A stretch of DNA of 64,000 bases from an uncultured Gammaproteobacteria bacterium (GTDB lineage: Bacteria; Patescibacteriota; Microgenomatia; UBA1406; HO2-37-13b). The translations under genes were made by a program, and so were the position numbers. Positions 2,195-63,097 of the stretch are shown here, piece by piece (position 1 is the stretch's first letter; each line of letters opens with the position of its first letter). The notes beneath the pieces are model-generated. The model did not search any database. It was not told the DNA's origin and saw only the letters and a list, made by a program, of their open reading frames with translations. The stretch spans positions 387,058 through 451,057 of the forward strand of contig CAZTFB010000001.1 of assembly GCA_964612595.1 (NCBI GenBank). The letters are read 5' to 3'.

Positions 2195-2205
2195 GTACGG
2201 GGCAG

Positions 2206-24857: not shown

Positions 24858-24927
24858 CCATAGGCTTTATTTGATATAATAACCTAAACCTTGCTCGTAT
24901 TGGTCGCATCAAAAAGAAAGGATCAGC

Positions 24928-25182: not shown

Positions 25183-25206
25183 CTCCTTCATTGCGAGCAA
25201 GGAGCA

Positions 25207-25231
25207 GGTGGCCGGACACAGTCCGGCCACC
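25207..25231. terminator. Perfect 11-bp stem / 3-nt loop hairpin between convergent ORFs (candidate bidirectional terminator)
   Basis: GGTGGCCGGAC aca GTCCGGCCACC followed by TCTTCTT. The U-tract is weak. Confidence 0.5.
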
Positions 25232-25303
25232 TCTTCTTACAGACATACTCAACTTTACTGCTATAGGTTATATTGGTATAATTAATGATTCACGAGCTCG
25301 TTC

Positions 25304-25621
25304 TCAACAACGACACAACAAAGAAGGGAAGGAAAGCATTAAAACAAGTCCCAGATCAATTGTTGCTCGTATTGACAGACTTGAACCCGACAACTTATAC
25401 TCGACGAATCGTTCGACTTCAAGTTCAGTCGCGGCAACAGCGCCAATCTGATGCAGCTGCTTGCTGCGCGGGATCGGGAGGGCTGCCAAGTCACTGACTT
25501 GGGCTCTGATCTCGGACATCGTGTGACGAGGGTCCGAAGCTCGAGGCCCACGGCCGAGTAGCAGAGCTACGACGGCCGCATCGCACCCCGCTCCGACAAC
25601 AGTCGGGGCGGGGTGCTTCAT
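25304..25621 (-). CDS. Hypothetical ORF (105 aa) in the GC-rich islet; coding status doubtful
   Basis: An open frame only. Its first 13 codons coincide with a 14-bp hairpin whose single wobble pair works only in plus-strand RNA. Confidence 0.25.
   Translation of the reverse strand: MKHPAPTVVGAGCDAAVVALLLGRGPRASDPRHTMSEIRAQVSDLAALPIPRSKQLHQIGAVAATELEVERFVEYKLSGSSLSIRATIDLGLVLMLSFPSLLCRC
25584..25615 (+). other. Strong 14-bp GC-rich hairpin (CACCCCGCTCCGAC aaca GTCGGGGCGGGGTG)
   Basis: All 14 positions pair. One pair is U-G in the plus-strand transcript and would be an A-C mismatch in the minus-strand transcript. It lies 57 nt upstream of the EamA start. Confidence 0.6.
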
Positions 25622-25671
25622 ACATATAATTCTTCTTGCCTAACACAGACTCACCCGTTATACTGTGCGAA

Positions 25672-38825: not shown

Positions 38826-38858
38826 TAAAAAAACTTTTGTGTCAATGTAATTTTTCAG

Positions 38859-39608
38859 TTATTTTATGTCCAACAATATTTGCCCTACTTCAACAGGAAG
38901 ATAGTCTCTATATGTTAAGGCTGTAATCTTTGTATTTTCTGATGATCGTATTGTTGCTACACCCTTGCTCTTTGCCTGGATAGTTAAGTTTACCAATGGC
39001 TTAGACGGATCAAGTAGCTGCGAGGGGGTCCCGCCAAGAATAATTTTTAATGATCCATTATTTATTTGTGCAGCCGAAAGGGTTGTTGGCAAAGCACCAC
39101 CACTGACTGCTTGCTGTAGCACAATATTTTCTGGAAATGTAAGATGTAATTCCACAGTAGTAATTTTTTTGTTTCCTGGATTTACCATCACTGGAACAAT
39201 AATGGAATCACCAGTCCTTACTTCATTTGAATAGTTAAAATAAACGCTTACGTTATCATTCATTACAACCGGAGTTGGAGATATCACCTGTTGACTTTTT
39301 TCATTTCCTCGATCTAATATCTTTCTCCATAGGCTGTTTTGTTGCTTATTTTCAATAGGACTTACACTTGGTGAAAAGCCTGTATTGGTTTCAATTGGTA
39401 CACCTATTTGATTTTGTAAAGTTGTTGATTTTTTCTCTAGATAACTTCTGAGAAAAGCAATCATGAGAATGACAAATAGCAATAAAAACAAGAGCAAAAG
39501 GAGTATTAATAATGTTTTTTTGCGTTTTTCTTGATCTGAATTTCCCTCAGATGCAGCCATTGATGCATTCGGATCAGGTTGTGCGTTATAGTCCATATTA
39601 AGAATCAC
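38859..39608 (-). CDS. Membrane-anchored single cohesin-like module protein
   Basis: TM helix (LLILLLLLFLLLFVILMIAFL), then SVYFNYSNEVRTGDSIIVPVMVNPGNKKITTVELHLTFPENIV...LVNLTIQAKSKGVATI. Confidence 0.55.
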   Translation of the reverse strand: MILNMDYNAQPDPNASMAASEGNSDQEKRKKTLLILLLLLFLLLFVILMIAFLRSYLEKKSTTLQNQIGVPIETNTGFSPSVSPIENKQQNSLWRKILDRGNEKSQQVISPTPVVMNDNVSVYFNYSNEVRTGDSIIVPVMVNPGNKKITTVELHLTFPENIVLQQAVSGGALPTTLSAAQINNGSLKIILGGTPSQLLDPSKPLVNLTIQAKSKGVATIRSSENTKITALTYRDYLPVEVGQILLDIK

Positions 39609-39619
39609 AAATTTATAAG

Positions 39620-40891
39620 CTATTGAGCTCTACATACCCCATACTGTGCATGCACAAGATTCCAGTCAATAAGATTGACAATACTATCTCCATTTAGATC
39701 GCCAATATTCGTTTGTCGCCCATAGTTGGCATGAACAGCATTATATTCAACAAGATTACAGCATCCATCATTATTTATATCACAAAGAAGCGGAGCAGAG
39801 GTGGGTTGTGGTGATGTTGGTTGGGGTGCACCACCACCAACATCTGCCAGGTAGCCGTCTGGACAATTGTTTAGCTGTAGGTCAGACCAATCGTAAATTC
39901 TATAGTCTGCGCCGGGATCATTATGAATGGCAAGAAAACCATTGGGATATCCTGGGACCGATGCTGAGGTGACATCAAGACTATCTGTCCCAGATGATCC
40001 TTGCGCGGTAAACGTCCTAACCAGAGTGTTGGTTTGAAGATCAAAAACTTTAAAGTTACTTGCTCCCTGATTTGAGGAAACGAGATATCCATTGCCATTC
40101 CCACATTGATATATTGCTGCACCCTCATAATCAGGAGTTAATCCGTTACCTTGAATTACAGAAAGTCTCGTCTTTGGAGTAAGTGATGCATCAGCATAAT
40201 ATATGTGTGTTTGTGCCGGATTTTCCTCATTAACGTATATCTTTTTTGATGCGGTGTTAACCACAAATCCTTCAGCAACGTTTATACCAACATCAGTATT
40301 AAGATTACGCATAAAGGTACTTGTCACAACACCCTGGGCACCAGATATTTTCCAGTGTTTAATTGGAGCAGAGCTCTTTGATTTATCAAAACACTCCAAA
40401 TCTGTTGTGGATGGATTACGCCAACATGCCCACCCATAACTATCGGAAGATATTGAGGTTCCTGATGATGTAGGACCAGCAAGTTGAGTTACTACATTGT
40501 TAATTGTCCAATCATGATTAATTTTCCAAACGCCAATTTTTCCCAATCCTCTCAGGTTTGCTACAAACACATCTGTATTCTGACCTCCAAAGTTAAAGTT
40601 GTATACTACAGATCCATTATTTAAACTTGTGGTGAGCGGTTCTGTGTCAACTCTATTTCCTTGCAAATCCCATATACAGAATCCAGCATCTTTATCGGTG
40701 CCAAAGATTAGTGACTTTGCTTTGTTTGTCGGATGGATCCAGATAGCGGTATCATCGGCATTCGCATTACATTTGAGTGGACCAAGCTTAGGTTGGATAG
40801 TTAATGATTGTGCAAAAGTCGAAGGTGAAGATACGAAAATCAGTAAGAATAGAACAATGTATGCTGATGCGGATACAATTACATGCCTCAT
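39620..40891 (-). CDS. Secreted beta-propeller phytase-like (BPP/3-phytase family) protein with C-terminal dockerin-like module
   Basis: NADDTAIWIHPTNKAKSLIFGTDKDAGFCIWDLQG and GLTPDYEGAAIYQCGNGNGYLVSSNQGASNFKVFD parallel Bacillus PhyC ([65 protein letters not shown]), as recalled from memory. The C-terminus reads APQPTSPQPTSAP then DINNDGCCNLVEY...DLNGDSIVNLIDW. Confidence 0.75.
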   Translation of the reverse strand: MRHVIVSASAYIVLFLLIFVSSPSTFAQSLTIQPKLGPLKCNANADDTAIWIHPTNKAKSLIFGTDKDAGFCIWDLQGNRVDTEPLTTSLNNGSVVYNFNFGGQNTDVFVANLRGLGKIGVWKINHDWTINNVVTQLAGPTSSGTSISSDSYGWACWRNPSTTDLECFDKSKSSAPIKHWKISGAQGVVTSTFMRNLNTDVGINVAEGFVVNTASKKIYVNEENPAQTHIYYADASLTPKTRLSVIQGNGLTPDYEGAAIYQCGNGNGYLVSSNQGASNFKVFDLQTNTLVRTFTAQGSSGTDSLDVTSASVPGYPNGFLAIHNDPGADYRIYDWSDLQLNNCPDGYLADVGGGAPQPTSPQPTSAPLLCDINNDGCCNLVEYNAVHANYGRQTNIGDLNGDSIVNLIDWNLVHAQYGVCRAQ

Positions 40892-42303
40892 TACTCCTCG
40901 GGGTCAGCTGTCACTTCGATAAGTCCAAACTGCGCTATAAATACTGCATAGTCATGTATCGATACTCTTCCATCACGGTTACAATCAATTATTGAGTTTC
41001 TCGTTTGATCATTCCAGATTTCAAGAGCAAGATTGAGGTCGAGTTGGTCAACAATATTATCTCTCTGATTACCTGGTCCTGTAATATTCATGCAGAGTGG
41101 TGGATGAATGACACATCTATTGGCCTCACACTTTCCTACTGGACAAGGGGAGGTTATGCACGATACCGCACATTGACTGTCTGATGTGCATTGCGCACCT
41201 GATGTTGGCAAGACAGAGGTTGGTTGTGGTACACCGGTCGTTGGCTGAGGAGCACTCGTTGGTTGTGGCACTGAAGTAGGCTGTGAAACACTTGTTGGCT
41301 GAGGTATATATGTAGGAATCGATCCACCTGTGGTGGCCCCAACACTGATCGATCCTCCTGTACAACTTCCGACTGCAGAGATGGAACCATCTCCATTTAC
41401 AATAGCCAAATCCATCTCATCCCCACAGGATATGGCTGACATTCCATTTGCGATAGCGTTGAATGTCAAAGTACCGGCAATAAAGTCGCCAGTTACACCT
41501 CTTAAAGATGGGTCTGTTGTGGGATCGCTTGGAGGATTTGCACCCAAGGTAATACATGCCTTTCCTCCACTAAGTACTGCGGACTCAATGACGACAGGCA
41601 AATGCTCGCTAGGATTAAATGATACTGGTTGTACAACTGAGGGATTATAGTTTATACAAAACTCACCAGCCGCAATTCGCTGTTGAGTACTAATACGTAC
41701 ATCAACCGTTGTGGTTTGACCGTTTGAAAGAATCGGATTTATAACATCAAGCGAAACCGCTGCTGGATTCTGGATAACTGTTCTTCCGACCCAAAAAGTT
41801 CTATTCGATAGCTCTCCAACGTTACTTTCGGTATGGGAGATGTCGTACGCCTCGGTATTAACATACTGCAACACACTTGCTCCCACCTGTACACCTCTGA
41901 GGCGAAGCTCTGCAAAGCGCTGTCTTCCAGATAATGGAGATGCTGAGCCTACTTGGATACACGCAGTGTTCCCGTTAATAGTTCCAGGAAGAAGCTGTGT
42001 CGAGAACACACCTGTTGAATTCAACGATACAATTTGGAGATTGCTATTTACTTCTATACATGTACCAATAGCTGACATTCCTTGACCATCAGCATAAAGA
42101 TCTACAGAAAATTCTTGGTTTTGATCAATTTGTAGAACACTTGTATCGAATGAAAGATCTATTGCTGATCCAGATGCCTGACTTCTAAGGTCTTGTTGTT
42201 CGTTTAACTTACCAATAAGAAGAATCAAAAGCGCGATCAAGCCTAGAAAAAAAGCTATCTGAACGACCGGTTTTGTATTACGGAATTTATTCAAAATATT
42301 CAT
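40891..42303 (-). CDS. Secreted adaptor protein: two cohesin-like modules, PQPTS linker, Cys knot, degenerate dockerin-like module
   Basis: Two cohesin-like modules are read: IDLSFDTSVLQIDQNQEFSVDLYADGQGMSAIGTCIEVNSNLQIV and VSLDVINPILSNGQTTTVDVRISTQQRIAAGEFCINYNPSVV. The linker is PQPTSVSQPTSVPQPTSAPQPTTGVPQPTS. The C-terminus has DCNRDGRVSIHDY. The start is placed at ATG 42303 (the track gives 42339). The stop overlaps the next start by 1 nt (TAATG). Confidence 0.6.
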   Translation of the reverse strand: MNILNKFRNTKPVVQIAFFLGLIALLILLIGKLNEQQDLRSQASGSAIDLSFDTSVLQIDQNQEFSVDLYADGQGMSAIGTCIEVNSNLQIVSLNSTGVFSTQLLPGTINGNTACIQVGSASPLSGRQRFAELRLRGVQVGASVLQYVNTEAYDISHTESNVGELSNRTFWVGRTVIQNPAAVSLDVINPILSNGQTTTVDVRISTQQRIAAGEFCINYNPSVVQPVSFNPSEHLPVVIESAVLSGGKACITLGANPPSDPTTDPSLRGVTGDFIAGTLTFNAIANGMSAISCGDEMDLAIVNGDGSISAVGSCTGGSISVGATTGGSIPTYIPQPTSVSQPTSVPQPTSAPQPTTGVPQPTSVLPTSGAQCTSDSQCAVSCITSPCPVGKCEANRCVIHPPLCMNITGPGNQRDNIVDQLDLNLALEIWNDQTRNSIIDCNRDGRVSIHDYAVFIAQFGLIEVTADPEE

Positions 42304-42351
42304 ATTGTGCGTACTTCTACAGGGTACAAGAACAGACAATAGTTTGTCAAA

Positions 42352-42915
42352 TTATTCTTTACTACATGCATAATTTTGTAGCAATATACCATAGTCATAT
42401 ATATTCACGATACAATTATTATCAATATCTCCAGGAGTCTCACAGGTAGTCTGACCAAAATTTGCCTTAATTATTTCAACATCTGCAAAATCTACAGATC
42501 CGTCACCATTAACATCACCATCACACGACTTACTCTCAGGATTTGTTGACGGCACAAGAGGCGGCTCGGTGGTTGGTTCAAGTATTACTTCCGTTGGCAA
42601 TAATGTGGGTTCAACTGTGGGTTCAGTTGTCGGTACAGACGTAGGTTCAGATGTAAGCCCAGGAGTTGCTGTTGAAGATAATTCTAATGTTGGATCTACA
42701 ACAATCTCGGTCTGTACTTCCGAAGGAACAATCTCCGTCACCACTAACTCCTGCGTTTTTTCTTCTAGCGCTACGTCATTGGCAACATCAACCACTGGCC
42801 CATCTAACTCATCTGCAAACTTGCCAGGAACTTGGGGAGACTGAACTAAGTATGTTGAAAAACCAATAGAAATAATAAGAAACAAGACAAAACCAAGCAG
42901 TAAGGAATTCTTCAT
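42352..42915 (-). CDS. Small anchored protein: TM helix, acidic/PT linker and dockerin-like module
   Basis: DVNGDGSVDFADVEIIKANFG...DIDNNCIVNIYDYGILLQNY is a two-segment dockerin pattern. Confidence 0.65.
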   Translation of the reverse strand: MKNSLLLGFVLFLIISIGFSTYLVQSPQVPGKFADELDGPVVDVANDVALEEKTQELVVTEIVPSEVQTEIVVDPTLELSSTATPGLTSEPTSVPTTEPTVEPTLLPTEVILEPTTEPPLVPSTNPESKSCDGDVNGDGSVDFADVEIIKANFGQTTCETPGDIDNNCIVNIYDYGILLQNYACSKE

Positions 42916-43001: not shown

Positions 43002-44615
<1,614 letters not shown>

Positions 44616-44617
44616 AG

Positions 44618-44977
44618 TTATCCTAAATTTAATAACTCGTTAAGCGTCATTCCATCAAAAAGTTCTCGTTCATACATATCTAACCACGATTCAGTCAAAT
44701 ACTGAAGTAGAATAACTGTTTCTTGCAACTCATCTGTTGAGAATTTTTCCAACAAACTACCTAAAATAATCCGTGCCTGCTTGATAGATTTATCTTCACG
44801 ATTTTGCTCTGGAAAAATTTGACTAAGGAGCGCTGTCGTTGCATCTTGTTTTAGCGTGGGTTTATTATTAGAATGTGAAGTAGAAGCTGGAATATGAGTC
44901 TGGGATTGAAAGGGCACGATATTCTGATTTGCAGATTTTTGATTAATACTTATTGGTAACGTTTGAGTAAATTCCAT
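44618..44977 (-). CDS. Hypothetical protein (119 aa) directly upstream of the integrase
   Basis: Three-nt gap to the integrase start and divergent from the XRE gene. No motif recognised. Confidence 0.45.
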   Translation of the reverse strand: MEFTQTLPISINQKSANQNIVPFQSQTHIPASTSHSNNKPTLKQDATTALLSQIFPEQNREDKSIKQARIILGSLLEKFSTDELQETVILLQYLTESWLDMYERELFDGMTLNELLNLG

Positions 44978-44994
44978 GATTTTGTTATGATGGA

Positions 44995-45034
44995 CTATCC
45001 ATACTATGGATAGTATATATCCACAACATGGATA
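44995..45034. promoter_or_regulatory. Two palindromic operator-like sites sharing the half-site TGGATA(G)
   Basis: CTATCCATA c TATGGATAG (44995..45013) is a perfect 9-bp inverted repeat. TATCCA caaca TGGATA (45018..45034) is a 6-bp inverted repeat. Both lie in the 131-nt divergent intergenic region. Confidence 0.6.
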
Positions 45035-45093
45035 GTGTCAAGGGGTAAATTAGAAATAGTAACTAGTGACCCATAGTATTATTTAGGCCTATA

Positions 45094-45102
45094 TGTTATA
45101 CT
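45094..45102 (+). promoter_or_regulatory. Extended -10-like element TGTTATACT placed 6 nt before the XRE start codon (leaderless-type arrangement)
   Basis: The TGn-TATACT element ends at 45102 and the ATG is at 45109. No Shine-Dalgarno sequence lies between them. Confidence 0.35.
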
Positions 45103-45108
45103 AGAAAT

Positions 45109-45309
45109 ATGGGAAATGATAAAAAGGAACAATTAGATAAACAGTTAAAAGCAGTTCGACTCAAGAAAAAGCTAACCCAAGTACAAATGGCCGAACTACT
45201 TGAAATGAATGACAATTATTATGCTCGTCTTGAAAGAGGAGAGAAAACGCCGTCAGTTGCTACACTTAGAAGAATAACTGATAAACTGCATATTACAATA
45301 AAGCTTTAG
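45109..45309 (+). CDS. XRE-family helix-turn-helix transcriptional regulator (66 aa)
   Basis: LKAVRLKKKLTQVQMAELLEMNDNYYARLERGEKTPSVATLRRITDKL is the HTH_3 pattern. Confidence 0.85.
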   Translation: MGNDKKEQLDKQLKAVRLKKKLTQVQMAELLEMNDNYYARLERGEKTPSVATLRRITDKLHITIKL

Positions 45310-45390
45310 AACAAGTCGTAGCTTTACTTCACTGATCGTTTTTGATATACTTCCACCTTACATAGCTTGTTAGAGCAAGCTCAACGTCCT

Positions 45391-46158
45391 ATGTCAATTC
45401 AATATAACATAGCAAATCTTAAAGACGCATTCCCTTCATACTTTCATCCGCTATTTTCTCTCTTGTCCACCCCACATATTCTCAATAACTTTTTTATAAT
45501 CAGTGGACTTATCATTCTTATCTTAATTACAGCTATCTTTATTATTAGCTACATACGGATTAAACGCTTTCTTTCCGGCTCTTATACAATCCTTGAAGTA
45601 AAGCCAACGTATAAAACACTCCAAAGCGCGTTTTCAACAGAACAGTTATTTGCCGTTGTTCATTCCCTAGAACAACCTATTTCACTTTTTGAACGGCTTA
45701 TTGGATTAAAACACATCATCGGTTGTGAGCTGGTATCAACCAAAAAAACGGGAATCAGGTATATACTCCGTATTCCATATGAGGATATAACTTCAATTAA
45801 AAAAAGCTTACTTGCGTATCTTCCTGGTGTTGAAATACAAGAGACAACTGATTATTTACCCTCTCATATCGAGAATATTCCCTCTGATAAGTATTTCTCT
45901 ATGAGAGAGTTCATCTTGAAAAAACCCTATGTGCTACCACTCAAAAATCAATCAGTCCTGAAAGAATACGATCCGATTGCCTACATAACTTCTCATATGA
46001 CCAAACTTGATGTGGATGAATTAGTCGCATTGCAGTTTATCTGCACCCCTGTTGTGTCTCGTACTCATGGTTCTGTTTTTACCCATACTCACAAACTTAA
46101 TGAAAAATTACTATCCGACAAAGATATTTCTCGACTGATATATGGATGTAAAAAATAA
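45391..46158 (+). CDS. Membrane protein; possibly the N-terminal remnant of a T4SS coupling-type protein
   Basis: One TM helix, then ILEVKPTYKTLQSAFSTEQLFAVVHSLEQP...IRYILRIPYED...LPGVEIQE. This resembles N-terminal domains I recall in CPR conjugation-type ATPases. No ATPase domain follows. Confidence 0.3.
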   Translation: MSIQYNIANLKDAFPSYFHPLFSLLSTPHILNNFFIISGLIILILITAIFIISYIRIKRFLSGSYTILEVKPTYKTLQSAFSTEQLFAVVHSLEQPISLFERLIGLKHIIGCELVSTKKTGIRYILRIPYEDITSIKKSLLAYLPGVEIQETTDYLPSHIENIPSDKYFSMREFILKKPYVLPLKNQSVLKEYDPIAYITSHMTKLDVDELVALQFICTPVVSRTHGSVFTHTHKLNEKLLSDKDISRLIYGCKK

Positions 46159-47143
46159 CACTCAAGATCAAATTGTATTAAATCCTCAGAAAAATTTGCC
46201 CGAGAATTTGTCGCAAACAGATATAAAACCAAAATTTTCTGCAAAGAAAAAAGTCATTATTATAATAACCACACTCCTTATTTTTGTATATTTTTTTCGA
46301 TTACCCTCAACATTATCATACATTCTTCTTGTAAGTATTCAGGGAAATTCTGTTGAATTAGATAAACTACTGAAATGCCACAAAGGTGGAGCTGGTATGA
46401 GGTACTTTAATAACGGATGTGTTGATGGATGCGGATATGACGATCAAATGAGCGTCTGTACTCAGGCTTTTACATGGGGCTGTGATTGTGGAGCTAGTAA
46501 ATGTTGGGATGGAGATAAATGTATTTCAAATCCTGACAAAAAACCATACATTAGTCCTACACCGAACTTAAATATTGTCTACGCCGATGACAATAAACGT
46601 AAAACACTCGTTGAGACAAACTCTCCTGAAATAGCGATGCTTGAATCAAAAAAAGTGACAGTTAAAAATGGCGATATAGATTTCTCATACAGTTATCCAT
46701 CCAACTGGACTATAGATGAAATCTACCAAGATGATCCCGACAATACAATTAAAAGTCCCGACTACATACTCAATACAACTGAATATCCTGTACAAGAAAA
46801 TGGTACAAGCATTCAAATAGAATTGTACAGAAATATACCTGGTAAATTTATTGATCAAGAACGAAAAATTCCGGTTCCAATATCTCCTGGAATGTCCATC
46901 CAAGATTTATACTTTGGCCCATTTGGCGCGCCACTCGATCCAATTAAAGTTGTCAGCGTTGGTGGAAAAGAGGTTGTATTCTTTGCATATGGAGGAGTGG
47001 ACCAATACGCATTCCAGTTTATATTTAAAAATCATATCGTATCAATACAATATCACATCCCTGATCTTGAATTTGATCCTCAGAAACAAACATTCGAAAA
47101 GTACTTGCACGTTGTGTGGTTTATCATAAATTCATTCGAATAA
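46142..47143 (+). CDS. Membrane-anchored hypothetical protein with a Cys-rich segment
   Basis: TM helix, then KCHKGGAGMRYFNNGCVDGCGYDDQMSVCTQAFTWGCDCGASKCWDGDKC. Confidence 0.45.
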   Translation: MDVKNNTQDQIVLNPQKNLPENLSQTDIKPKFSAKKKVIIIITTLLIFVYFFRLPSTLSYILLVSIQGNSVELDKLLKCHKGGAGMRYFNNGCVDGCGYDDQMSVCTQAFTWGCDCGASKCWDGDKCISNPDKKPYISPTPNLNIVYADDNKRKTLVETNSPEIAMLESKKVTVKNGDIDFSYSYPSNWTIDEIYQDDPDNTIKSPDYILNTTEYPVQENGTSIQIELYRNIPGKFIDQERKIPVPISPGMSIQDLYFGPFGAPLDPIKVVSVGGKEVVFFAYGGVDQYAFQFIFKNHIVSIQYHIPDLEFDPQKQTFEKYLHVVWFIINSFE

Positions 47144-47145
47144 GT

Positions 47146-48030
47146 ATGGATTCTGAAAATAATACCAATACCATACCCACATCGCCGATACCAATTCGTT
47201 CATATGGATATCGAAAGGGGTTTTTTATTGGTCTCTTACTATTAATACCAATTATTGTTGTAATGTTCTTCTCAATAATTCTTCCTCGAAATCAATTCTC
47301 ACCTGAAAATCCACCACTTCCTACTCCTATTAACGATAGCAAATATCCATTCGGTATACCGATTCCAACAATAACACATTCTCCGACTAAAATGAATGAG
47401 CTGTCAGAAAAATTTCCTCACTTGATAGAGGATTGTCGATTCGCCTATGGCAATTGCGTAAAAGCGATGAGTGATAATGAAGCAAGTGCTTATCCAGGAG
47501 GCATCATTCAAATTAAGACTGAGTCCATCGAAAAATTTATCAGTAATCATACGAGTGAAATGAGCTATATCCTAAATCAAGGCGCAAGTATTCCGGACCT
47601 TGCTAAAGATATAGATAGTACAGCCAATGTTTGGTCATTCAGTCCAAAAGTGGCTTTAACAATTCTAGTCTTAAATAACCCACCATTCCAAGTACTCTCT
47701 GAAATAAAATTAACAGACTATAATAATTTAGAACCCTCCGGATGGGGGAGATTTATTTTCAATGTTCACTATGAATTTTACTCAGGTTTTTATGGTTGGG
47801 ATTACAGAAAAGAAAATAAGGCAAATTTTGAAAATTCAAGAGTAATATTTCAAGATGGATCAGAAATTTTCCCACCAGAAGAAGCTCAGGCAGGAGACGT
47901 AGCTCTATATCGTTTTTTTGCCAAATATTACCCAAAAGATCATTGGGAGAAATTAGTCAGCAAAACTCATCCAGATGGATTCTATCAAACATATTTTTCA
48001 CTATTTGACTATCCAGATGAAAAATATTAA
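47146..48030 (+). CDS. Membrane-anchored hypothetical protein
   Basis: The ATG at 47146 follows the upstream stop. It has one TM helix (FFIGLLLLIPIIVVMFFSIIL). Confidence 0.45.
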   Translation: MDSENNTNTIPTSPIPIRSYGYRKGFFIGLLLLIPIIVVMFFSIILPRNQFSPENPPLPTPINDSKYPFGIPIPTITHSPTKMNELSEKFPHLIEDCRFAYGNCVKAMSDNEASAYPGGIIQIKTESIEKFISNHTSEMSYILNQGASIPDLAKDIDSTANVWSFSPKVALTILVLNNPPFQVLSEIKLTDYNNLEPSGWGRFIFNVHYEFYSGFYGWDYRKENKANFENSRVIFQDGSEIFPPEEAQAGDVALYRFFAKYYPKDHWEKLVSKTHPDGFYQTYFSLFDYPDEKY

Positions 48031-48051
48031 ACTTAAAGAAATACTGAGATT

Positions 48052-48969
48052 ATGAAACAAAACGAACCAGAGACTCAATACACACAAAAGACAGCGTTTA
48101 CGTCGGAAGATAATCCTTGGAAATGGATTGCAATTGTATTTCTTACGATCATAATTGCTCTTATAATATCTCAAACTCAGAAAAATCAAAGTATTTTACC
48201 GATATTCACGCCCCCAATAACAATTAAAGACCCTTCATCGTTCTATGAAAATTCAACTGAGAAACCGAACGAACCTATTACACCTATGGCAACTCCTGAA
48301 AACTCTTTTTCTGCTGATGAGATAACAAAAAGCAATATATGGTTACAAACTAAATTTGATAATAATTGTAGAGATGATAATGGAGGCGAATTGTATGAAG
48401 AATCAAGTAATAACCGTCTTGATCCTAAAGATGTTAAACCAAGCGATCTTAGTCTGAAAATTTCTGACAAAGACCTCGCCGAGCTTGAATGCGACTTTTA
48501 TCACGAAGGATTTATGACAAAAAATAATCAACTAAATTTTGAAGCAATATATGAATTGGGATCAATGACTCCGTACGAAACCTCTGACGATCTTAGTGCG
48601 CGTCCTGATACCCAGATCAATACTTTCCTAACTACAGATCTTAACGCGACAAATGGCATTATTGGTAAGGATGTTTCTGTAGAAGTAGACGGATTACGAA
48701 TTTTACAATTGAAAAATGGGACAAAAATTCGCATAAGGACTCGATTATGGAACGTCATTCCTCCCAACAATCCACTGCTTATTGACCTAATTAATAAGAA
48801 TGCTACATTGATTGATGAATACTGTGAAATCGTGAATTCTACTAAAACTTGTAAAAGCTATAAAATTGGAACGTTTAACAATAACTTGCTTATAACAACT
48901 TTTGGACCAGAGATTAAAAAAGCAACCGAGGAGTTGGAGCGAAGATTGTTATCAGTTGATGCAATTTGA
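48052..48969 (+). CDS. Membrane-anchored hypothetical protein
   Basis: One TM helix (WKWIAIVFLTIIIALIIS). No motif recognised. Confidence 0.45.
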   Translation: MKQNEPETQYTQKTAFTSEDNPWKWIAIVFLTIIIALIISQTQKNQSILPIFTPPITIKDPSSFYENSTEKPNEPITPMATPENSFSADEITKSNIWLQTKFDNNCRDDNGGELYEESSNNRLDPKDVKPSDLSLKISDKDLAELECDFYHEGFMTKNNQLNFEAIYELGSMTPYETSDDLSARPDTQINTFLTTDLNATNGIIGKDVSVEVDGLRILQLKNGTKIRIRTRLWNVIPPNNPLLIDLINKNATLIDEYCEIVNSTKTCKSYKIGTFNNNLLITTFGPEIKKATEELERRLLSVDAI

Positions 48970-49367
48970 TTTCGTTTATAAAAATAAAGCTATATAACGT
49001 TAATTCCAAAATAATAGATGGAGCCTTATTAAATACCACAGATAAATAACCTCAAACAATGACTAAACTATCTGAACTCTGAACAAATCTAGCAAAAAAT
49101 TACATTTAAGTAAAACTTAATAATGACTTAAAAAATCAGATAAAGATGAAGTAGCAATGTCGTTCATAGGAATTGGTTGTCATAAATATTTTAATTGAAA
49201 TATTCGAATTAGCATCGCTGGAAAAATAAGAAAAATGTCTTCTCTAAGCATTAAATTTTATTTATAGAACATAATCTCTCTTAAATAGAATTTAACATAA
49301 ATTCAAACGTAATACATATATAGCCTCATAAACTGATATAATTATAAATTAGTTTTCAAATAAAACC

Positions 49368-50111
49368 ATGTTTACTATCCCACAATTATCCTATCAAATA
49401 AAAAAAATTCCGAAAAAGGGTCGGGGGATAATTGCCCTCAAAGATATTGAGCCCGGTAGCATTATCGGTGATTATCTTGGCAAGGTGGTCCACGATGATG
49501 AGGCAACCAGACTTGAAAATAAACATGGCTTTTACTCCATGCATTACGGGAAAAACGCTTGTATCTTTCCAGATTCAAGACTATCTGGAGTCCACCTCAT
49601 CAACCATTCCTGCATGCCAAACTGTGGTAAGTTTCCCTATAAAAGCCATACTCTTTACTTTGCCTTAAGAAAAATATTTGCCGGTGAGGAGTTAAGTGTT
49701 GGTTACAACATCGAAGCTCCAGTTACCGATGATGAACCATCCTTCCCCTGCTACTGTAAAACAGTTTTATGCAAAGGCACTATGTGCATCTCTCCAACAA
49801 TACGGGAAGAATGGGACAATTTTGTTGACAAAAAACAAATGAAATATATCAATGTAAAAAAAATGATGAATAAATCTCTCGAACTTTTCTCCACTTACCC
49901 AAAACAAATTAGCGACCATAAAATATACGATATTTTCTGCAATTTAGAAAAAGAACCTCATTTGATAACTGATATGATATTACCGGCACTATCTAAAATT
50001 CGAGACCAAATACGACTTAGTGGTCGACGACTTTTTTTTCCAAAACTTGGCATAGAAATTATTGGGGTTATGAATGGTGTGATTTGCGTCTATCCTATTA
50101 AAAAAAAATAA
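49368..50111 (+). CDS. SET-domain protein (putative lysine methyltransferase) with post-SET Cys motif and an approximately 100-aa C-terminal extension
   Basis: KGRGIIALKDIEPGSII, HLINHSCMPNC (NHSCxPN), GEELSVGYN (ELxxxY) and CYCKTVLCKG (post-SET CxCx4C). Confidence 0.75.
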   Translation: MFTIPQLSYQIKKIPKKGRGIIALKDIEPGSIIGDYLGKVVHDDEATRLENKHGFYSMHYGKNACIFPDSRLSGVHLINHSCMPNCGKFPYKSHTLYFALRKIFAGEELSVGYNIEAPVTDDEPSFPCYCKTVLCKGTMCISPTIREEWDNFVDKKQMKYINVKKMMNKSLELFSTYPKQISDHKIYDIFCNLEKEPHLITDMILPALSKIRDQIRLSGRRLFFPKLGIEIIGVMNGVICVYPIKKK

Positions 50112-50118
50112 TTTCTCA

Positions 50119-50448
50119 ATGATTTCCCTATCCTCCGATCAACAACAAACTCTAAATACTATTTTAAAATGGTTTAAAGAGGACAATAAAAAAGAGCAAT
50201 TTATCACTCTTGGTGGCTATGCCGGTACCGGCAAAACGACACTGATCGCCACCATCAGAAAAGAACTGGAAAAAATTGATAAAAAGGCAAAGGTAGGCTT
50301 TGCCAGCTACACCGGCAAGGCCGCCCGTGTCCTTAAAAATAAATTAACCGAACAAAAAGTTATTCTGCCACAGGACACCGTTGGCACCTGCAAGTCGGAG
50401 CAAAATATAGACGATTTTACTATCTTGCTGATATTCCTGCCTATTTGA
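50119..50448 (+). pseudogene. RecD/Dda-like (AAA_30) helicase, 5' fragment only
   Basis: QQTLNTILKWF...ITLGGYAGTGKTTLIATI (Walker A) and FASYTGKAARVL. The frame terminates after about 100 aa, with no helicase motifs II-VI anywhere downstream. Confidence 0.6.
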
Positions 50449-51965
50449 GTCCCTATGTCTTTTTCAGATTATTAACGTCGTCATTACCCTTTACCCTAAG
50501 TATCTTTATACAACCAACTCCTAGTGGTGAATTGTTGAAAAAAGCCCGACAACGATTATCCGTTCTTGAAATGCAACAAAATGATAGGTTGAAAGCTGGA
50601 AAGCTACGGGATCAACAAACAGATAAAAATATTGAAGAAGTTATGTCTTTTATTGATGAATTGGTGCACGAAGCTGAAAAAGGAATCCTGTATTCATTGT
50701 ATCTACAACTGGAGGCAGAAGATGAACAAAAACTAGCTCATTTACATAAGGAGTTACAGAACATAACGAATGCAATGGACATTACGTTTAATCAATATAC
50801 CTTTGGACACAAAAAAGCCTTTAAAAACTTTCTGCCCTTTAATATTGATCACTTGAAAGAAAACAGAATTTTACAATCAACAGCAGCTTCCTATCTTATG
50901 CCGTTTGTGTCAAAACAACTGAATGACCCTCAAGGAATCTTTATGGGCGTGAATGCGTACAATAATAGTCTTGTCTTTATTGATCCATTTACTTCGCGCA
51001 ACAATAATATCAACATATTCGGAGTTTCAGGTTCGGGTAAAAGTGTGACCTCAAAAACATTGATGAACCGATTATATATGCGGGGCATACAGATTATTGT
51101 CATAGATCCTGAAGGAGAGTATGTCAGTTTAGCCAAATCTTTAGGAGGAGAAGTCATTTCTTTCTCACGAGAGAATGGTATTAATCCGTTTTATATAAAT
51201 AGTTCTCAAGAAAATGATATCTTAGATCACATCTCAACCCTCAAGACATTCTTCAAGTTCTTTATCCCAACTCATCATTATGATGGCGCATTACTTGATG
51301 AAAAACTTATAAAACTCTATGACTCAGGTTCACCAAACTTTGAAAACTTACTTGAACTATTAAAAGACAGTCCTATGCAGAAAGATTTAAGTGTCCTGTC
51401 TGCGGGAAGTTTACGGGGAGTGTTTAATTCAACTCGCAGACTTGAACTTGATAATGATATTATTGTCCTCGATTTACATGATCTAAAGAAAGATGAGAAA
51501 CGAGATCCAGCTATATACCTTTTAACATCACCCATTTGGAATTTGGTGAATAAAAATAATGATAAACGACGAATGCTTTTTATTGACGAAGCACATAAAT
51601 TATTAGTTGATCCGGAAGTTGCCATATTTTATCGAGAACTTGTCAAACAAGCTCGTAAGCGAAATGTCGGTGTTGTGTCTATCACGCAAGATGTAGAAGA
51701 TTTTCTCCATAACGAATATGGAAAAGCAATTATCACTAACTCTGAAACAAAAATACTTCTTAAGCAGTCATATGCCACGCTTGAGCAGATCGGGACTATT
51801 TACCCAATGACTGACGAGGAGAAACAACAATTGGGACATTTAGAGATTGGGGAGGTTGTGTTATTTCGTGAAGGAGAACATATTAGACTCAATGTTCTTG
51901 TTTTGCCACATGAGCAGCCCTTAGTATTTACCTCGCATACTGATACCCATGAAGAAGCTTCTTAA
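50445..51965 (+). CDS. VirB4/TraC-family (DUF87-type) secretion ATPase, apparently 5'-truncated
   Basis: Walker A FGVSGSGKSV, IIVIDPEGEY, Walker B MLFIDEAHKL and RKRNVGVVSITQDVEDF. The frame is open back to 50343 (..AKYRRFYYLADIPAYLSPYVFF) without a start codon, and there is only a TTG at 50445. Confidence 0.6.
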   Translation: MSPYVFFRLLTSSLPFTLSIFIQPTPSGELLKKARQRLSVLEMQQNDRLKAGKLRDQQTDKNIEEVMSFIDELVHEAEKGILYSLYLQLEAEDEQKLAHLHKELQNITNAMDITFNQYTFGHKKAFKNFLPFNIDHLKENRILQSTAASYLMPFVSKQLNDPQGIFMGVNAYNNSLVFIDPFTSRNNNINIFGVSGSGKSVTSKTLMNRLYMRGIQIIVIDPEGEYVSLAKSLGGEVISFSRENGINPFYINSSQENDILDHISTLKTFFKFFIPTHHYDGALLDEKLIKLYDSGSPNFENLLELLKDSPMQKDLSVLSAGSLRGVFNSTRRLELDNDIIVLDLHDLKKDEKRDPAIYLLTSPIWNLVNKNNDKRRMLFIDEAHKLLVDPEVAIFYRELVKQARKRNVGVVSITQDVEDFLHNEYGKAIITNSETKILLKQSYATLEQIGTIYPMTDEEKQQLGHLEIGEVVLFREGEHIRLNVLVLPHEQPLVFTSHTDTHEEAS

Positions 51966-52707
51966 TCTTCATGCGTTCAAGCAAGATCCCTTTGGTTTTA
52001 TCATAGATGCAATCATTACGATTGTTGTTAATCTGGTTATTCCGATTCCCTTGGCAGGTACGTTTGTCAGTAGTTTGCGTGGACCAGCATTAGGCTGTCT
52101 TGCATCACTTCTTCTTTTAGGACTATTTATGCTCGTAACTATTGGAACGATTATTCTGTCACCATTTCTTGTGAGCTCAAGCTTTCTACAACAATTAACT
52201 TCAAACTTAGTGATTCCCTCAAATATCGCAGCTGATGATAGTTTTATAGAAACGTCTATACCTGTACAAAATCCATTTGGTGGAGTTGGTATGAGCTACA
52301 CGACCGTAACAGCATATTATCTTGATCCAAATTACTTTTTACAGTTTGGGAGAGTTCACACCGGCGTTGATTTGGTACCAACTGAAACCTACTTTGAAAA
52401 CAGCAAAACATATAAAGAAACGCATCAAATAGTGATCTTCTCAACCATTAATGGATCAGTGAGTCATTTTATTGATGAATATGGCGGTGAAACGGTAGAA
52501 GTGACAAATAGCGAAAATACGTTAAAGGCTGTTTTCGTGCATTTCAGTAAGGTTTTGGTTAATTCAGGAGTAACCATCAAAGCAGGAACTCCAATAGGGA
52601 TCATGGGTAAAACAGGATTTGTTACGGGAGAGCATGTGCATTATGAAATTAGAATAAAAAATGGTAATTCATGGGGAATTACTGATCCGTTACAATATAT
52701 ACAATAA
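51949..52707 (+). CDS. Membrane protein with C-terminal M23 (LytM-type) peptidase domain
   Basis: Two to three TM helices, then HTGVDLVP (HxxxD) and GEHVHYEIR (HxH). It overlaps the ATPase gene by 17 nt. Confidence 0.7.
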   Translation: MKKLLNLHAFKQDPFGFIIDAIITIVVNLVIPIPLAGTFVSSLRGPALGCLASLLLLGLFMLVTIGTIILSPFLVSSSFLQQLTSNLVIPSNIAADDSFIETSIPVQNPFGGVGMSYTTVTAYYLDPNYFLQFGRVHTGVDLVPTETYFENSKTYKETHQIVIFSTINGSVSHFIDEYGGETVEVTNSENTLKAVFVHFSKVLVNSGVTIKAGTPIGIMGKTGFVTGEHVHYEIRIKNGNSWGITDPLQYIQ

Positions 52708-52709
52708 TT

Positions 52710-53480
52710 ATGAAAGATATTGAACTTAATCCATTAAACCAGAGTCAGCGAAAATTATTGCAACTAGGAGTTGTTTTGTTGCTGGGGATATTCCTCATAG
52801 GATATTTCTTTGTTATTTCTAAAAAAACTACAACCGTCTATTTACAAGACGAAAATCTTCACATATTTGAGGATTCCATGCAATTTAGCTACCCTGATAG
52901 GCTTTCAATGCATTACCCGTATCTGTTAGTAGTGCAACCAGAAAAGCAATTAACGTATATTTATAATCTTGAACAAAAAAGGGGAGACAAAAATGTTAGT
53001 GAAATAGCGTTAGATTACTACGACGGAAAACTACTATATGTCAAAGGAACATCTACTTTCATTGATAAACAAGATCTAGAGGTTTTATGTGAAAAGGGAA
53101 TTATTAAAAATGAGCGAGAAGTTCTTTGTGTGACGAAAGTGCATCCGAATAGCATGCAGAATAAGCTCATAAGCATTAATCCTGAAACTGAACAGAAAAA
53201 AGATTTATACATCTCGCAAAATATAATCTCTGACGTGAATTTCATAGATCATAGTTACTATTTAGGGGAGATCAGTATTGATGGTAATAAAAATTTCTTA
53301 GTAATTGATGGGAAGCAAATTGAAGTCCCTAATATAGTGAGTATGATCTATGAAATGAACGGAGGAGTTTATTTTGCTTCGTTTAAGAGTGCTCTCAACA
53401 AGGATAAGGAAAGTTATTATCTTGTGAGAGATAATAGAGCCGAGAAACAACAAGAGGATAAAATATATCTATTTAAATGA
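52710..53480 (+). CDS. Membrane-anchored hypothetical protein (256 aa)
   Basis: One TM helix (LQLGVVLLLGIFLIGYFFVI). Two nt after the preceding stop. Confidence 0.45.
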   Translation: MKDIELNPLNQSQRKLLQLGVVLLLGIFLIGYFFVISKKTTTVYLQDENLHIFEDSMQFSYPDRLSMHYPYLLVVQPEKQLTYIYNLEQKRGDKNVSEIALDYYDGKLLYVKGTSTFIDKQDLEVLCEKGIIKNEREVLCVTKVHPNSMQNKLISINPETEQKKDLYISQNIISDVNFIDHSYYLGEISIDGNKNFLVIDGKQIEVPNIVSMIYEMNGGVYFASFKSALNKDKESYYLVRDNRAEKQQEDKIYLFK

Positions 53481-53481
53481 C

Positions 53482-53718
53482 TTAATTTCTAGGTCTTTCT
53501 TCTAAGATTGCTTTTGCCAACTGCCGCATTCCATTTGCAACGACTTCGAGATATTCTACATCATCAAGTTTTTCAGGAGCTATCTGCTCAATTGCTTTTT
53601 GGGCATATTCCAAAGCTTTATCATGATCATTGAGCAAAGTTACGAGAGTTTCGTTATCTAGAGCTTCAATCTGATGTTTATATTTATCATTCTCGAGAAT
53701 ATCTTCTGTAATACCCAT
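53482..53718 (-). CDS. Small acidic hypothetical protein
   Basis: ORF only. The ATG at 53718 is preferred over the TTG at 53736. Confidence 0.35.
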   Translation of the reverse strand: MGITEDILENDKYKHQIEALDNETLVTLLNDHDKALEYAQKAIEQIAPEKLDDVEYLEVVANGMRQLAKAILEERPRN

Positions 53719-53880
53719 ATAACTCAATTCTAACAAAAAATCATACCAAGAGGAGTAATAAGAAAACAGAGATATTATTCCTCAATCTTATTTTTTGATA
53801 TAATGAGCTCACCTGATTCGGATAGATAGAACTGCATCAAACTATAGAAATGTGATACAATTGGTTCGAATAGAGACGCA

Positions 53881-55333
53881 TCAGGTCCGCCATTGTGCAC
53901 GAATGCTCGCAAGAGCCTCGGATTGTGCCTTAGTAACGGGCTTTTTGCTCAGTTCTAACCCTAAGTATTGTTTTTGCGGTAGGGGTGCTCGGTTTTCAAT
54001 GGGGACAAACCATTCCATTTTGTCGATGTAGAGTTTTCCAGCCTTGATTTGGGTATTTAGACCAAGAGCCATTAAGATTTCCTTCTTCAGTTCTAACCCT
54101 TGTCTACCCATTTCGTTTGCCTTAAGGAACATCATTCTGGCATAAGTGGCGAAGTTAAAAGTTCTCTCTGTTAACTCCAGCCATCTCTCAGCTCTGTCTT
54201 CAGTGTGGCGAAGTTTGCCTTTCATTTCAGTGATTTTGGTTTGCAGCTCATTTCTTTCCTTGATAAAGGTATTGTCATCAATCAGATCTCGGTAGCGCAT
54301 CTTAGTCAGGTTATCCAGTTCCTTCTGGGTAGTAACTAAGTTGTTATGCTGCATTTCGTAAACTTTGGTGCGGTCTTCAATATCTCTGTCGTTATTCTCG
54401 TTGAGGATCTCCAGCGCCCAGTCTCGAAACTCTGGGAGAATGGTTAAACCCTCGAGTACCTTCTCGATTTGTGTCTCTAATTTATCCAATGGAAGCATTT
54501 TTCTTTGGGAGCAGTTGATAGTGGTTTTCTTCCTGGTGCAATGATAATAGGTGTATTGCTCGATCTGACCTGTCTTTTTAATAAACTTTTTCTTGATTTC
54601 GGCAGTGTAGAGACAACCACACTCTGCACAGCGAATAAAGCCTGTAAAAGCGAAGAAGTGTTCTTCTGGTCTTGGTTTGCCTTTTCTGCCCAGTAATACC
54701 TGCACCTGGTCAAATTCCTCTAAGGTTATCATTGGTTCGTGTTTACCTTCAAACTGCACGCCTTTATGTTCGATAACGCCTGCATAGAAGATATTGGTAA
54801 AATCCTGTAGATACCGCTTCGGGAGAGGGGCTTGCCTCCCAACTTCTTGCTTTTTCTGGTGCGATAACCCCATTCCTCATTGGCAATCTTAAGAATTTGC
54901 GGTGGTGTGTATGCACCGGTGAGCATCAGCTGTCACATTTTACTTACCAGGTTGAATCGCTCGGTGTCTTTGGTAATAGTTTTCTCCAGCTGGTCATTTA
55001 AGTAGCCTGATGGGGCAAGGTTAGGCAGCCAGCCCTTTGTCAGTTTTGTTTCTAAACCTCGTTTTACATTCTTGCTCAGGTCAATGACATATTGATTGGA
55101 AGTAGCTGCATCCACGCTGAAGATGAGGACATTATCTCCTGGTAAGTATTCTCGGTCATAAGTCTGGATTGATTTGATGATGTTCTTCTGGAGTAGCCAG
55201 CTGATTCTGCCACTATCGACTGGGTTACGAGATAAACGGTTAATTTGCCAGCAAAGGATGCCATCAGACTCGCCATCCTCAATCCGCCCAATCATTTCTT
55301 CAAAAACATCTCTTACTCCTGGGGCTTTGGCAA
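53881..55333 (-). pseudogene. Large serine recombinase pseudogene (5'-truncated, one in-frame TGA, one frameshift)
   Basis: There are three pieces. Piece 55333..54933 reads AKAPGVRDVFEEMIGRIEDGESDGILCWQINRLSRN... and ends at TGA 54935..54933. The same frame resumes with QLMLTGAYTPPQILKIANEEWG..SGIYRIL. It then shifts into 54873..53881 (YLQDFTNIFYAGV...CAECGCLY...YYHCT, zinc ribbon plus coiled coil). The nucleophile-Ser region is missing because a TAA lies just upstream. Confidence 0.8.
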
Positions 55334-59560: not shown

Positions 59561-59742
59561 TGAAAGCGTCAGGTTGCTCCAAGTCCCGTCCACCCTGTGA
59601 ATTTGGGTTGTTGGGGCTTGCTGAAAAATTGGAATCAATCTCAAAAGTCTTAAAAGTATCCTGGAGAGTAGAAAATCGTCGAAAAAACCCTTTATGTATT
59701 TGCTCTTGGTTCTAAGCTTTTGATAAAATATTGCATAAATAT

Positions 59743-60147
59743 ATGAAAAATCTTCCTCTTGATTACTATCCGCCTCTCGCCAGAAAAGCAATAATTTTTC
59801 TGAACTCAGCAAAATCTGGTTTTAAAATCACCAATAGACAAGTAGGGTCTGAAGAAGCGACTTATTATCAACTATCTCAGGCAATTGAATTTTCAATAAA
59901 AGCATTAGTAAAAAAGGAGACTGGGATAGCCCCACCTCGAATTCATGAGAAACAAATACTCACCGAGAGATATAGGGACATCTGTGGCTTTTCAGATAGC
60001 GAAATGGACACTATCGTAAAACTAAAACAATTAAATAATGGACCTAGAGGATTACGTTATGATAATAGTCCAATTGGCGAGTTTCTACCTTCAACGTTCA
60101 ATATGGGCGTAAAGATTGTTGAAAGATTACTAGAAAAGTTTGAATAG
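59743..60147 (+). CDS. Hypothetical protein, HEPN-like helical domain (weak)
   Basis: ATYYQLSQAIEFSIKALVKKETGIAPPRIHEKQIL resembles the HEPN helix pattern (QA.E..lKAl....g.....H.l..L). No partner nucleotidyltransferase was seen. Confidence 0.3.
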   Translation: MKNLPLDYYPPLARKAIIFLNSAKSGFKITNRQVGSEEATYYQLSQAIEFSIKALVKKETGIAPPRIHEKQILTERYRDICGFSDSEMDTIVKLKQLNNGPRGLRYDNSPIGEFLPSTFNMGVKIVERLLEKFE

Positions 60148-63081: not shown

Positions 63082-63097
63082 TCGTATTTATGCATGT

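Follow-up and report, generated by a model that had tools for sequence, protein, structure and literature searches.

Bacterial SET-domain enzymes have mostly been discussed as histone-targeting effectors of pathogens. What role, then, might such an enzyme have in a bacterial genome in which its gene lies next to type IV secretion system (T4SS) genes, within what looks like a mobile element? This question is raised by a 64,000-nucleotide (nt) stretch of contig CAZTFB010000001.1 (assembly GCA_964612595.1, positions 387,058 to 451,057), referred to here as the window, which carries an open reading frame (ORF) encoding a 247-amino acid (aa) SET protein (Table 1). An original prediction, made from the sequence of the window, had described the gene as mobile-element cargo and its product as a candidate host-manipulation or nucleoid-protein-modifying factor. 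From the analysis presented here, we consider it reasonably probable that the protein is a catalytically competent cytoplasmic lysine N-methyltransferase with an endogenous substrate, that it is not secreted, and that the window copy sits in a degraded island beside a deletion scar.

The secure part of this reading is that the ORF encodes an intact SET methyltransferase, predicted to be lysine-specific and dependent upon S-adenosylmethionine (SAM), as judged from its active-site integrity, fold, and family membership. The hidden Markov model (HMM) search proposed in the original prediction matched the Pfam SET profile (PF00856) at 61.4 bits (E = 1.2e-16), above the curated cutoff of 22.4, with residues 18 to 114 spanning profile positions 1 to 105 of 105. 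The hallmarks that had been claimed for the protein are all present, namely GRG (G18-R-G20), NHSCxPN (N79-H-S-C-M-P-N85), ELxxxY (within E107-E-L-S-V-G-Y113), and the post-SET CxCx4C motif, in which the zinc-site cysteines of C128-Y-C130-KTVL-C135 are complemented by C82 of the NHSC motif. Over its whole length, the protein can be aligned with 51 homologs of the same ~245-aa architecture. Across the resulting 52-sequence family alignment, N79, C82, E107, E108, Y113, C128, and C130 are invariant, while H80, S81, N85, and C135 are ≥90% conserved; all invariant family residues are kept in the window protein, and the loss of SAM-binding or catalytic tyrosine residues, which the original prediction had named as grounds for doubt, is not seen. 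An AlphaFold2 model built on the family alignment was confident throughout, with a predicted local distance difference test (pLDDT) score of 94.4 and a predicted template modeling (pTM) score of 0.91. In a Foldseek comparison of this model with the PDB, the first ~143 residues superposed on the SET plus post-SET regions of MLL1, NSD, and SETD2 proteins (E~1e-10). The best target was the MLL1 SET domain 5f6l (E = 1.8e-10; template modeling score to target, 0.69), and the best 50 of the 368 PDB matches at E ≤0.001 were all SET-domain methyltransferases. The family profile likewise matched KMT2A in the PDB across profile positions 14 to 138 (E = 1.3e-25). The SET protein is 100% identical in contigs of three independent sequencing runs from two projects, and therefore no decay is visible. 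It is a basic protein with an isoelectric point (pI) of 9.1, and the suggested check for secretion signals found neither a signal peptide nor a transmembrane segment in it (maximum 19-aa hydropathy, 1.6). Ankyrin or other effector-type domains were also absent from the protein, as Pfam reported SET alone and NCBIfam gave no match.

Beyond the SET core, the ~100-aa C-terminal extension noted in the original prediction proved to be real and conserved across the family. This domain (pI 9.5) includes a conserved Y177-P178 motif, an Arg-rich helix (R212, R216), and G219, and it is confidently predicted even when modeled separately (pLDDT 91). It has no match in Pfam, its Foldseek comparison with the PDB found nothing similar (best E = 3.6), and in a viral library search, the SET core alone was matched and the C-terminal domain was not. 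A HMMER search of 1.84 billion representatives with a profile of the domain returned just 112 proteins or clusters, nearly all of which are ~245 aa in length and carry the domain at ~140 to 245; the shorter ones are compatible with fragments. The C-terminal domain probably supplies substrate recognition.

A word-indexed search of 5.8 billion proteins with the window SET protein as the query yielded 82 clusters at 35 to 47% identity, nearly all of them 240 to 255 aa in length and covering the query end to end, with Roizmanbacteria, Falkowbacteria, and "Patescibacteria group" as the named sources. When one genome per species was scanned, SET relatives were found in 142 species genomes, for which the informative titles were Levyibacteriota, Roizmanbacteria, Parcubacteria, Falkowbacteria, Jorgensenbacteria, Ryanbacteria, Peribacteria, Saccharibacteria, and Minisyncoccia. 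Many loci from metagenome-assembled genomes bear the titles "uncultured Gammaproteobacteria" or "Methylomirabilota", which we set aside as unreliable because such loci share synteny with named Patescibacteria loci (L030 is the L010 record). By these sequence comparisons, the family is a small group of SET proteins distinguished by a C-terminal module of its own, for which all informative source names are Patescibacteria. In the literature searched, we found no description joining a SET domain with Patescibacteria.

The host-dependent lineage upon which the original prediction had made its proposal conditional does apply here, as the genome belongs to the Patescibacteria, or candidate phyla radiation (CPR). 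The 495,732-bp contig that carries the SET gene also encodes a UppP protein, whose named relatives at 51 to 56% identity are mostly Roizmanbacteria/Microgenomates, and the remainder of the window is a typical CPR chromosome with glycosyltransferases, PMT_2, MacB/ABC, DinB, and cohesin/dockerin-like surface proteins. In a rough neighbor-joining tree, the window SET protein grouped with a Roizmanbacteria copy having a Ddl-like gene on both sides. Its closest relatives (45 to 47% identity) are chromosomal and found either in the order Bac_transf-RarA-TrpR-SET or adjoining a Ddl-like gene. A phylogeny placing the protein with housekeeping SET proteins of the core genome had been named as an argument against host manipulation, and this is largely what we observe: the protein nests in a Patescibacteria-wide subfamily within ordinary chromosomal neighborhoods. 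Among 2.9 million viral contigs (IMG/VR), a single one carries a member of the SET family. On this contig (L147, IMGVR_UViG_3300020195_001307, 1 to 6300), the SET gene is divergent from a full-length PIF1-like helicase gene and is also near genes for a DsbA-like protein, a serine recombinase, and a group II intron reverse transcriptase. L147 may be CPR chromosomal DNA rather than a virus.

We next consider the company that the family keeps, using 80 non-redundant SET loci besides the window, in which ORFs were called and neighbors were clustered. In 44 of the 80 loci, the SET gene has an ATP-grasp ligase or GNAT-like transferase gene at a distance of ≤6 kb, with both present in 26. Two non-orthologous partner pairs are seen, in at least six different orders or orientations. 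One consists of a ~822-aa double ATP-grasp protein, whose C-terminal half resembles D-Ala-D-Ala ligase (Ddl; NCBIfam PRK01372, 198.6 bits), together with an Acetyltransf_6 (FemAB-related, FemX-like) protein. The other combines a PurD-like ATP-grasp protein (GARS_A plus GARS_C) with an LPG_synthase_C (MprF C-terminal-like) protein. Aligned against each other, the two GNAT-like partner families gave E = 0.002 at a probability of 14% (hhalign), and the two ATP-grasp families gave E = 0.17. Enzymes of these ligase and transferase classes are known to make D-Ala-D-Ala and to attach acyl groups to the epsilon-amine of lysine in lipids or precursors of peptidoglycan. Judging from gene neighborhoods, we favor the pairing of ATP-grasp with FemX/MprF-like proteins as the strongest functional lead for the family. 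The DNA-binding protein HU (Bac_DNA_binding) is encoded by the next gene downstream of SET, on the same strand and ~200 nt away, in 17 of the 80 loci. All 17 share one block (LemA-TPM-DNA_alkylation-SIMPL-ATPgrasp-AcT6-SET-HU-sigma70) and therefore reflect approximately one evolutionary event; an HU gene was found neither in the other SET context types nor anywhere within the 64-kb window. In ~20 loci, one to three short SET paralogs of 130 to 190 aa lie beside the long SET gene (e.g., L009 7466 to 7999, L011 7434 to 7973, L035, and L078). These paralogs keep the NHSxxPN and EELxxDY motifs; one type has a CxCx4C post-SET motif and the others do not.

A virB4 gene occurs within 10 kb of SET in one lineage only (L006/L019), as 78 of the 80 loci have none. 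In this ABY1-like lineage, SET, ATP-grasp, and Acetyltransf_6 genes are ~7 kb from an intact PrgI-TraC-like-VirB4 cluster, along with ComF-like and RecG genes. The arrangement matches the association of comF/recG with T4SS reported for the class ABY1 (PMC12102498).

The original prediction had read a functional connection into the nearness of the gene to secretion-type genes. The T4SS module in question, VirB4-M23-k2, is conserved in ~50 metagenome loci at 62 to 97% identity (M23 follows virB4 in ~50 loci and k2 follows M23 in 40), and in the related loci, genes for a VirB2-like pilin, a VirB6/TrbL-like protein, and a 269-aa protein come before the gene for a VirB4 of ~700 to 725 aa. The window copy lacks the VirB2-like pilin, VirB6-like, and k3 genes, as well as the first ~182 codons of virB4. 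In a blastn comparison with L095, which has the most similar intact copy (VirB4 97% identical at the aa level), the shared DNA extended from 50355, which corresponds to virB4 codon ~183, to 53890, and NCBIfam profiles aligned to the window VirB4 only from position 231 to 727 of 752. The open frame that remains begins at 50445 (TTG) or 50568 (ATG). Because relatives matched this 464-aa VirB4 along its full extent, we considered that it might be a conserved short form, but rejected the idea given the length of its relatives and the start of DNA homology at codon ~183. The junction at 50355 falls inside an annotated 109-aa ORF (ending at 50448), which is a helicase stub followed by out-of-frame virB4-derived DNA, and the SET gene and the helicase stub therefore lie together on the same side of a scar produced by illegitimate recombination or deletion. 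As read from the alignment of this junction, this event eliminated three T4SS genes along with the beginning of virB4 and fused the helicase stub to what was left. A SET gene is absent from all 52 related T4SS loci. Thus, the predicted gene content makes the adjacency of SET and T4SS an artefact of deletion, with a T4SS copy that is non-functional as encoded here, and since this copy is broken, the adjacent T4SS cannot deliver the SET enzyme.

The helicase stub has a distribution of its own. Its homologs, 32 among the 5.8 billion proteins, are all just 74 to 139 aa in length. In two longer contexts (L148 2793 to 3119 and L149 1610 to 2808), the stub is either a lone gene with HflX and GreA/LysRS as its neighbors or has a separate UvrD_C fragment after it; neither of these longer contexts contains an element, as might have been expected if the helicase gene were an integration target. 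By sequence, this looks like a recurrently truncated or split RecD/PIF1-like helicase of Microgenomates-type CPR genomes, for which gene decay, gene splitting, or a hotspot of insertion could each be the cause.

Both the SET gene and the T4SS remnant belong to a ~12-kb island with a serine recombinase at either end. The 3' end of the left recombinase gene runs antisense across the tRNA-Ser gene. A 64% identical homolog of this recombinase in L105 is linked to a T4SS module, and the two are homologous only up to about residue 498 of 537; chromosomal/tRNA DNA thus appears to supply the final ~39 codons, which would place the element junction at ~43.1 kb. Both pieces of the right recombinase pseudogene match single recombinases in L060 and L012, and the Zn_ribbon_recom domain is confined to its 330-aa piece. 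A contig from an independent run (L001) is identical to window positions 43070 to 55186 at 100% and ends inside the tRNA-Ser gene on one side and inside the recombinase pseudogene on the other. A search for att-like direct or inverted repeats across 42 to 58 kb returned only short, chance-level matches, and the island ends were therefore placed from the tRNA, the recombinases, and contig L001. A lack of att direct repeats is expected for serine recombinases. The GC content of the island differs modestly from that of the rest of the window (36.6% vs 39.8%; SET gene, 36.7%). The element is incomplete, as its virB4 and k11-like genes are truncated and one recombinase is split, and the island has no relaxase. 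The genes of unknown function between 44618 and 48969 have no Pfam, PADLOC, or informative PHROG match, and u333, u304, and u305 have no homologs in SET or T4SS loci, even by jackhmmer. We also considered a defence-system role for SET and these island genes and rejected it, because PADLOC gave no match, including for the SET protein itself, and PHROGs were uninformative. The description of SET as mobile-element cargo is accordingly partly right: the gene is inside a recombinase-bounded, lower-GC, separately assembling island, which may be a dead mobile one, whereas a complete or mobile element, or relatives with SET as cargo, are not found.

The SET gene had also been said to follow a ~400-nt AT-rich, promoter-like spacer. 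The spacer is indeed AT-rich, being the lowest-GC 398-nt segment of the entire 64 kb (0.03% of such segments are equally low), but its promoter-like character is an assumption. Three sigma-70-like motifs were found in the spacer, compared to 6.0 +/- 1.7 expected from shuffled sequences, which is no enrichment. A riboswitch or small RNA in the spacer was rejected, as the Rfam score was 17 bits against a cutoff of 60 and the predicted fold was non-significant (z = -1.15). The spacer DNA has no similarity to any other collected locus.

How then might the enzyme act? According to the favored reading of an endogenous, non-secreted methyltransferase, the SET core would catalyze SAM-dependent N-methylation of protein lysines, with the basic C-terminal domain as the probable substrate recognizer. 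Since the family is chromosomal and located beside amide-bond-forming ligases and transferases, our best guess for the substrate would be a lysine of a protein or peptide tied to the envelope-peptide pathway, with HU or another basic protein as a second choice. The window copy would be one that has become detached from the usual partners of the family and placed immediately left of the scar at 50355. Several points weigh against this reading. The identity of the substrate is one that we wholly infer. Partners are missing in ~45% of the family loci, including a large Levyibacteria-type clade, where the neighbors instead are ComF-like proteins and DEAD/RecG helicases. HMMs of the partners gave 75 matches in the 783 kb located no more than 6 kb from SET, compared to 0 matches in 394 kb of farther flank, a contrast that measures the adjacency of these particular subfamilies rather than a general enrichment, since the HMMs derive from the neighbors themselves. 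Within the 64-kb window, there are no ATP-grasp or transferase partners at all (the one match, 63026 to 64000 at E = 0.0011, is not ATP-grasp by Pfam), and the guilt-by-association argument is therefore borrowed from relatives that are only 35 to 47% identical. UppP relatives reach 82% identity while the best SET relative is 47% identical, which fits horizontal acquisition, relocation, or fast evolution of the window SET gene. Lastly, T4SS substrates carry no recognizable N-terminal signal, and therefore an intact T4SS elsewhere in the genome might still export the protein. A more specific version of the partnership, in which SET, ATP-grasp ligases, and FemX/MprF-like transferases form an undescribed lysine-decorating pathway and the SET enzyme methylates an envelope-peptide lysine, the pathway enzymes, or a carrier, we regard as distinctly unlikely. 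If true, it would extend SET chemistry beyond protein substrates of the chromatin or ribosome type, with the C-terminal domain as an adaptor.

Three other explanations of the window gene compete with an endogenous substrate in the envelope-peptide pathway. The nearest is that SET acts within its own cell by methylating HU or another basic protein bound to DNA or RNA, with the basic C-terminal domain and its conserved Arg-rich helix docking on nucleoprotein. This version of the nucleoid-modifier proposal draws weak support from the HU adjacency in 17 of the 80 loci and has a precedent in the archaeal Go1-SET, which methylates the chromatin protein MC1-alpha (PMC3980110), but the adjacency is that of a single syntenic clade with no counterpart in the window or in the other context types, and we judge it rather unlikely. 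The known hosts of CPR bacteria are, to our knowledge, prokaryotes. This matters for the idea that the enzyme passes through a T4SS or by some other route into the host of the epibiont and methylates nucleoid-associated or other proteins there, as the characterized bacterial SET effectors hit eukaryotic histones (PMC3980110). The patescibacterial affiliation of the genome is compatible with such an effector, and the T4SS of Patescibacteria is widespread, relaxase-less, and essential for epibiotic growth in Saccharimonadia (PMC12102498). The SET gene moreover adjoins T4SS genes in a recombinase-bounded island, another lineage (L006/L019) has it near an intact virB4 cluster, and L147 has another homolog in the vicinity of a serine recombinase. 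On the other hand, the local T4SS is a remnant separated from SET by the deletion junction, the family is chromosomal and otherwise unlinked to T4SS genes in both sets of loci, and the protein has neither effector-type accessory domains nor a signal peptide. We therefore hold host manipulation by this protein to be very unlikely. Finally, SET could be a functionless passenger in a decaying island, on its way to becoming a pseudogene. It does sit among three broken neighbors (a helicase reduced to a stub, a virB4 that lacks its start, and a recombinase in two pieces) and away from the usual partners of its family; its full-length frame, the retention of every invariant residue, the complete protein identity across sequencing runs, and the confident structural model all speak against decay and leave this the least probable of the explanations, highly unlikely in our view.

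The window protein can be set against the closest known systems. The SET plus post-SET domains of KMT2/MLL, NSD, and SETD2 are its best matches in both sequence and structure and have the GxG, NHSCxPN, and ELxxxY motifs and the CxCx4C zinc site in common with it. Identity is nevertheless ~25 to 28%, and the window protein is without pre-SET/AWS regions, partners of the WDR5/RbBP5/ASH2L type, or chromatin readers; a unique 105-aa C-terminal domain replaces the short post-SET tail, and the organism, being a bacterium, has no histones. Legionella RomA/LegAS4, Chlamydia NUE, Burkholderia BtSET, and Bacillus BaSET are secreted bacterial SET effectors (PMC3980110), which resemble the window protein, by description, as bacterial SET lysine methyltransferases of host-dependent organisms. 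However, these effectors enter eukaryotic cells through a functional type III secretion system or T4SS and methylate histones, in contrast to the broken T4SS and the ligase-linked chromosomal family described here, and no bacterial effector was among the best 60 PDB sequence matches of the SET family profile. Go1-SET of Methanosarcina mazei is, like the window protein, a prokaryotic SET enzyme, and its MC1-alpha substrate (PMC3980110) parallels the HU adjacency in one CPR clade; unlike Go1-SET, again compared by description, the window protein has an extra C-terminal domain. The pairing of SET and ATP-grasp genes in CPR is analogous to TTLL12, which couples a SET-like domain to a tubulin-tyrosine-ligase-like ATP-grasp domain (PMC3520985). 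TTLL12 differs in being one fused eukaryotic protein that is reported to catalyze no histone methylation (PMC3520985), whereas the CPR genes are separate and their ATP-grasp proteins are Ddl- or PurD-like. The virB4-M23-k2 genes of the window belong to the MPF-FATA-like chromosomal T4SS of Patescibacteria (Quinonero-Coronel et al. 2025, PMC12102498), which the gene order of the intact related loci fits. In the window, however, the 5' part has been deleted, serine recombinases lie on both sides, and the dnaA-proximal chromosomal setting given in that paper does not apply.

Table 1. Positions within the window of the SET gene, its parts, and the surrounding island features
Feature	Position	Strand	Details
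tRNA-Ser (UGA)	43008..43095	+	Probable integration landmark; left island boundary
Large serine recombinase, intact	43002..44615	-	537 aa; Resolvase + Recombinase + Zn_ribbon_recom; NCBIfam CcrB/XisF-like
Island genes left of the SET spacer	44618..48969		k32, helix-turn-helix (HTH) gene, k11-like fragment, three lineage-specific ORFs
k32	within 44618..48969	-	119 aa
HTH gene	45109-45309		Within island
k11-like fragment	within 44618..48969		263 aa; ~800 aa in relatives
u333, u304, u305	within 44618..48969		Lineage-specific membrane or secreted ORFs of 333, 304, and 305 aa
AT-rich intergenic spacer upstream of SET	48970..49367		398 nt; 23.6% GC
SET-domain protein-lysine methyltransferase gene (predicted)	49368..50111	+	247 aa; ATG start
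SET core	residues ~10-120	+	Part of the 49368..50111 protein
Post-SET CxCx4C motif	residues 128-135, nt 49749-49772	+	Motif
C-terminal alpha/beta domain of SET protein	residues ~141-247, nt 49788..50108	+	Family-specific; ~105 aa
RecD/PIF1-type (AAA_30) helicase 5' stub	50119..50354	+	~79 codons; Walker A region; Pfam AAA_19/AAA_30/PIF1 at residues 4-79
virB4 (T4SS ATPase) remnant, 5'-truncated	50355..51965	+	Codons ~183-719 of the intact 719-aa gene
Membrane-anchored M23 peptidoglycan hydrolase	51949..52707	+	T4SS module; Pfam Peptidase_M23, E = 6.8e-14
k2, conserved T4SS-module protein	52710..53480	+	256 aa
k18	53482..53736	-	84 aa; last gene of the block shared with L095
Large serine recombinase pseudogene	53881..55295	-	Split into two ORFs, 53881-54873 and 54933-55295

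Several other features of the window should be mentioned. Just downstream of a tRNA cluster, a ~750-nt stretch at 24900 to 25650 is GC-rich (47 to 61% vs a background of ~39%) and has strongly structured predicted RNA on both strands (z = -6.7 for + and -6.0 for -); its + strand ends in a strong GC hairpin at ~25590 to 25625 followed by a U-rich tail. This stretch has no ORF ≥100 aa on the + strand and no Rfam match at E ≤0.1, and it is a candidate for a large structured non-coding RNA with no known family matched. Immediately left of the tRNA-Ser gene and the island, positions 36504 to 42915 (- strand) encode several large proteins in a row, secreted or on the surface, whose matches to cohesin- and dockerin-like domains are weak, as well as a phytase-like protein at 39620 to 40891. 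A small HEPN-domain protein (E = 2e-4) encoded at 59731 to 60147 is possibly half of a HEPN/MNT toxin-antitoxin pair.

For annotation, the window calls for caution, as the adjacency of "secretion genes" to SET here stems from a deletion within a degraded island rather than from the pairing of an effector with its machine. The interest lies in the pattern at the level of the family rather than in the window locus: a compact SET subfamily whose named sources are all CPR, with an unclassified but confidently folded C-terminal domain and a repeated partnership with cell-wall-type peptide ligases. If this partnership is functional, it would bring lysine methylation into the envelope or nucleoid biology of ultra-small episymbionts.

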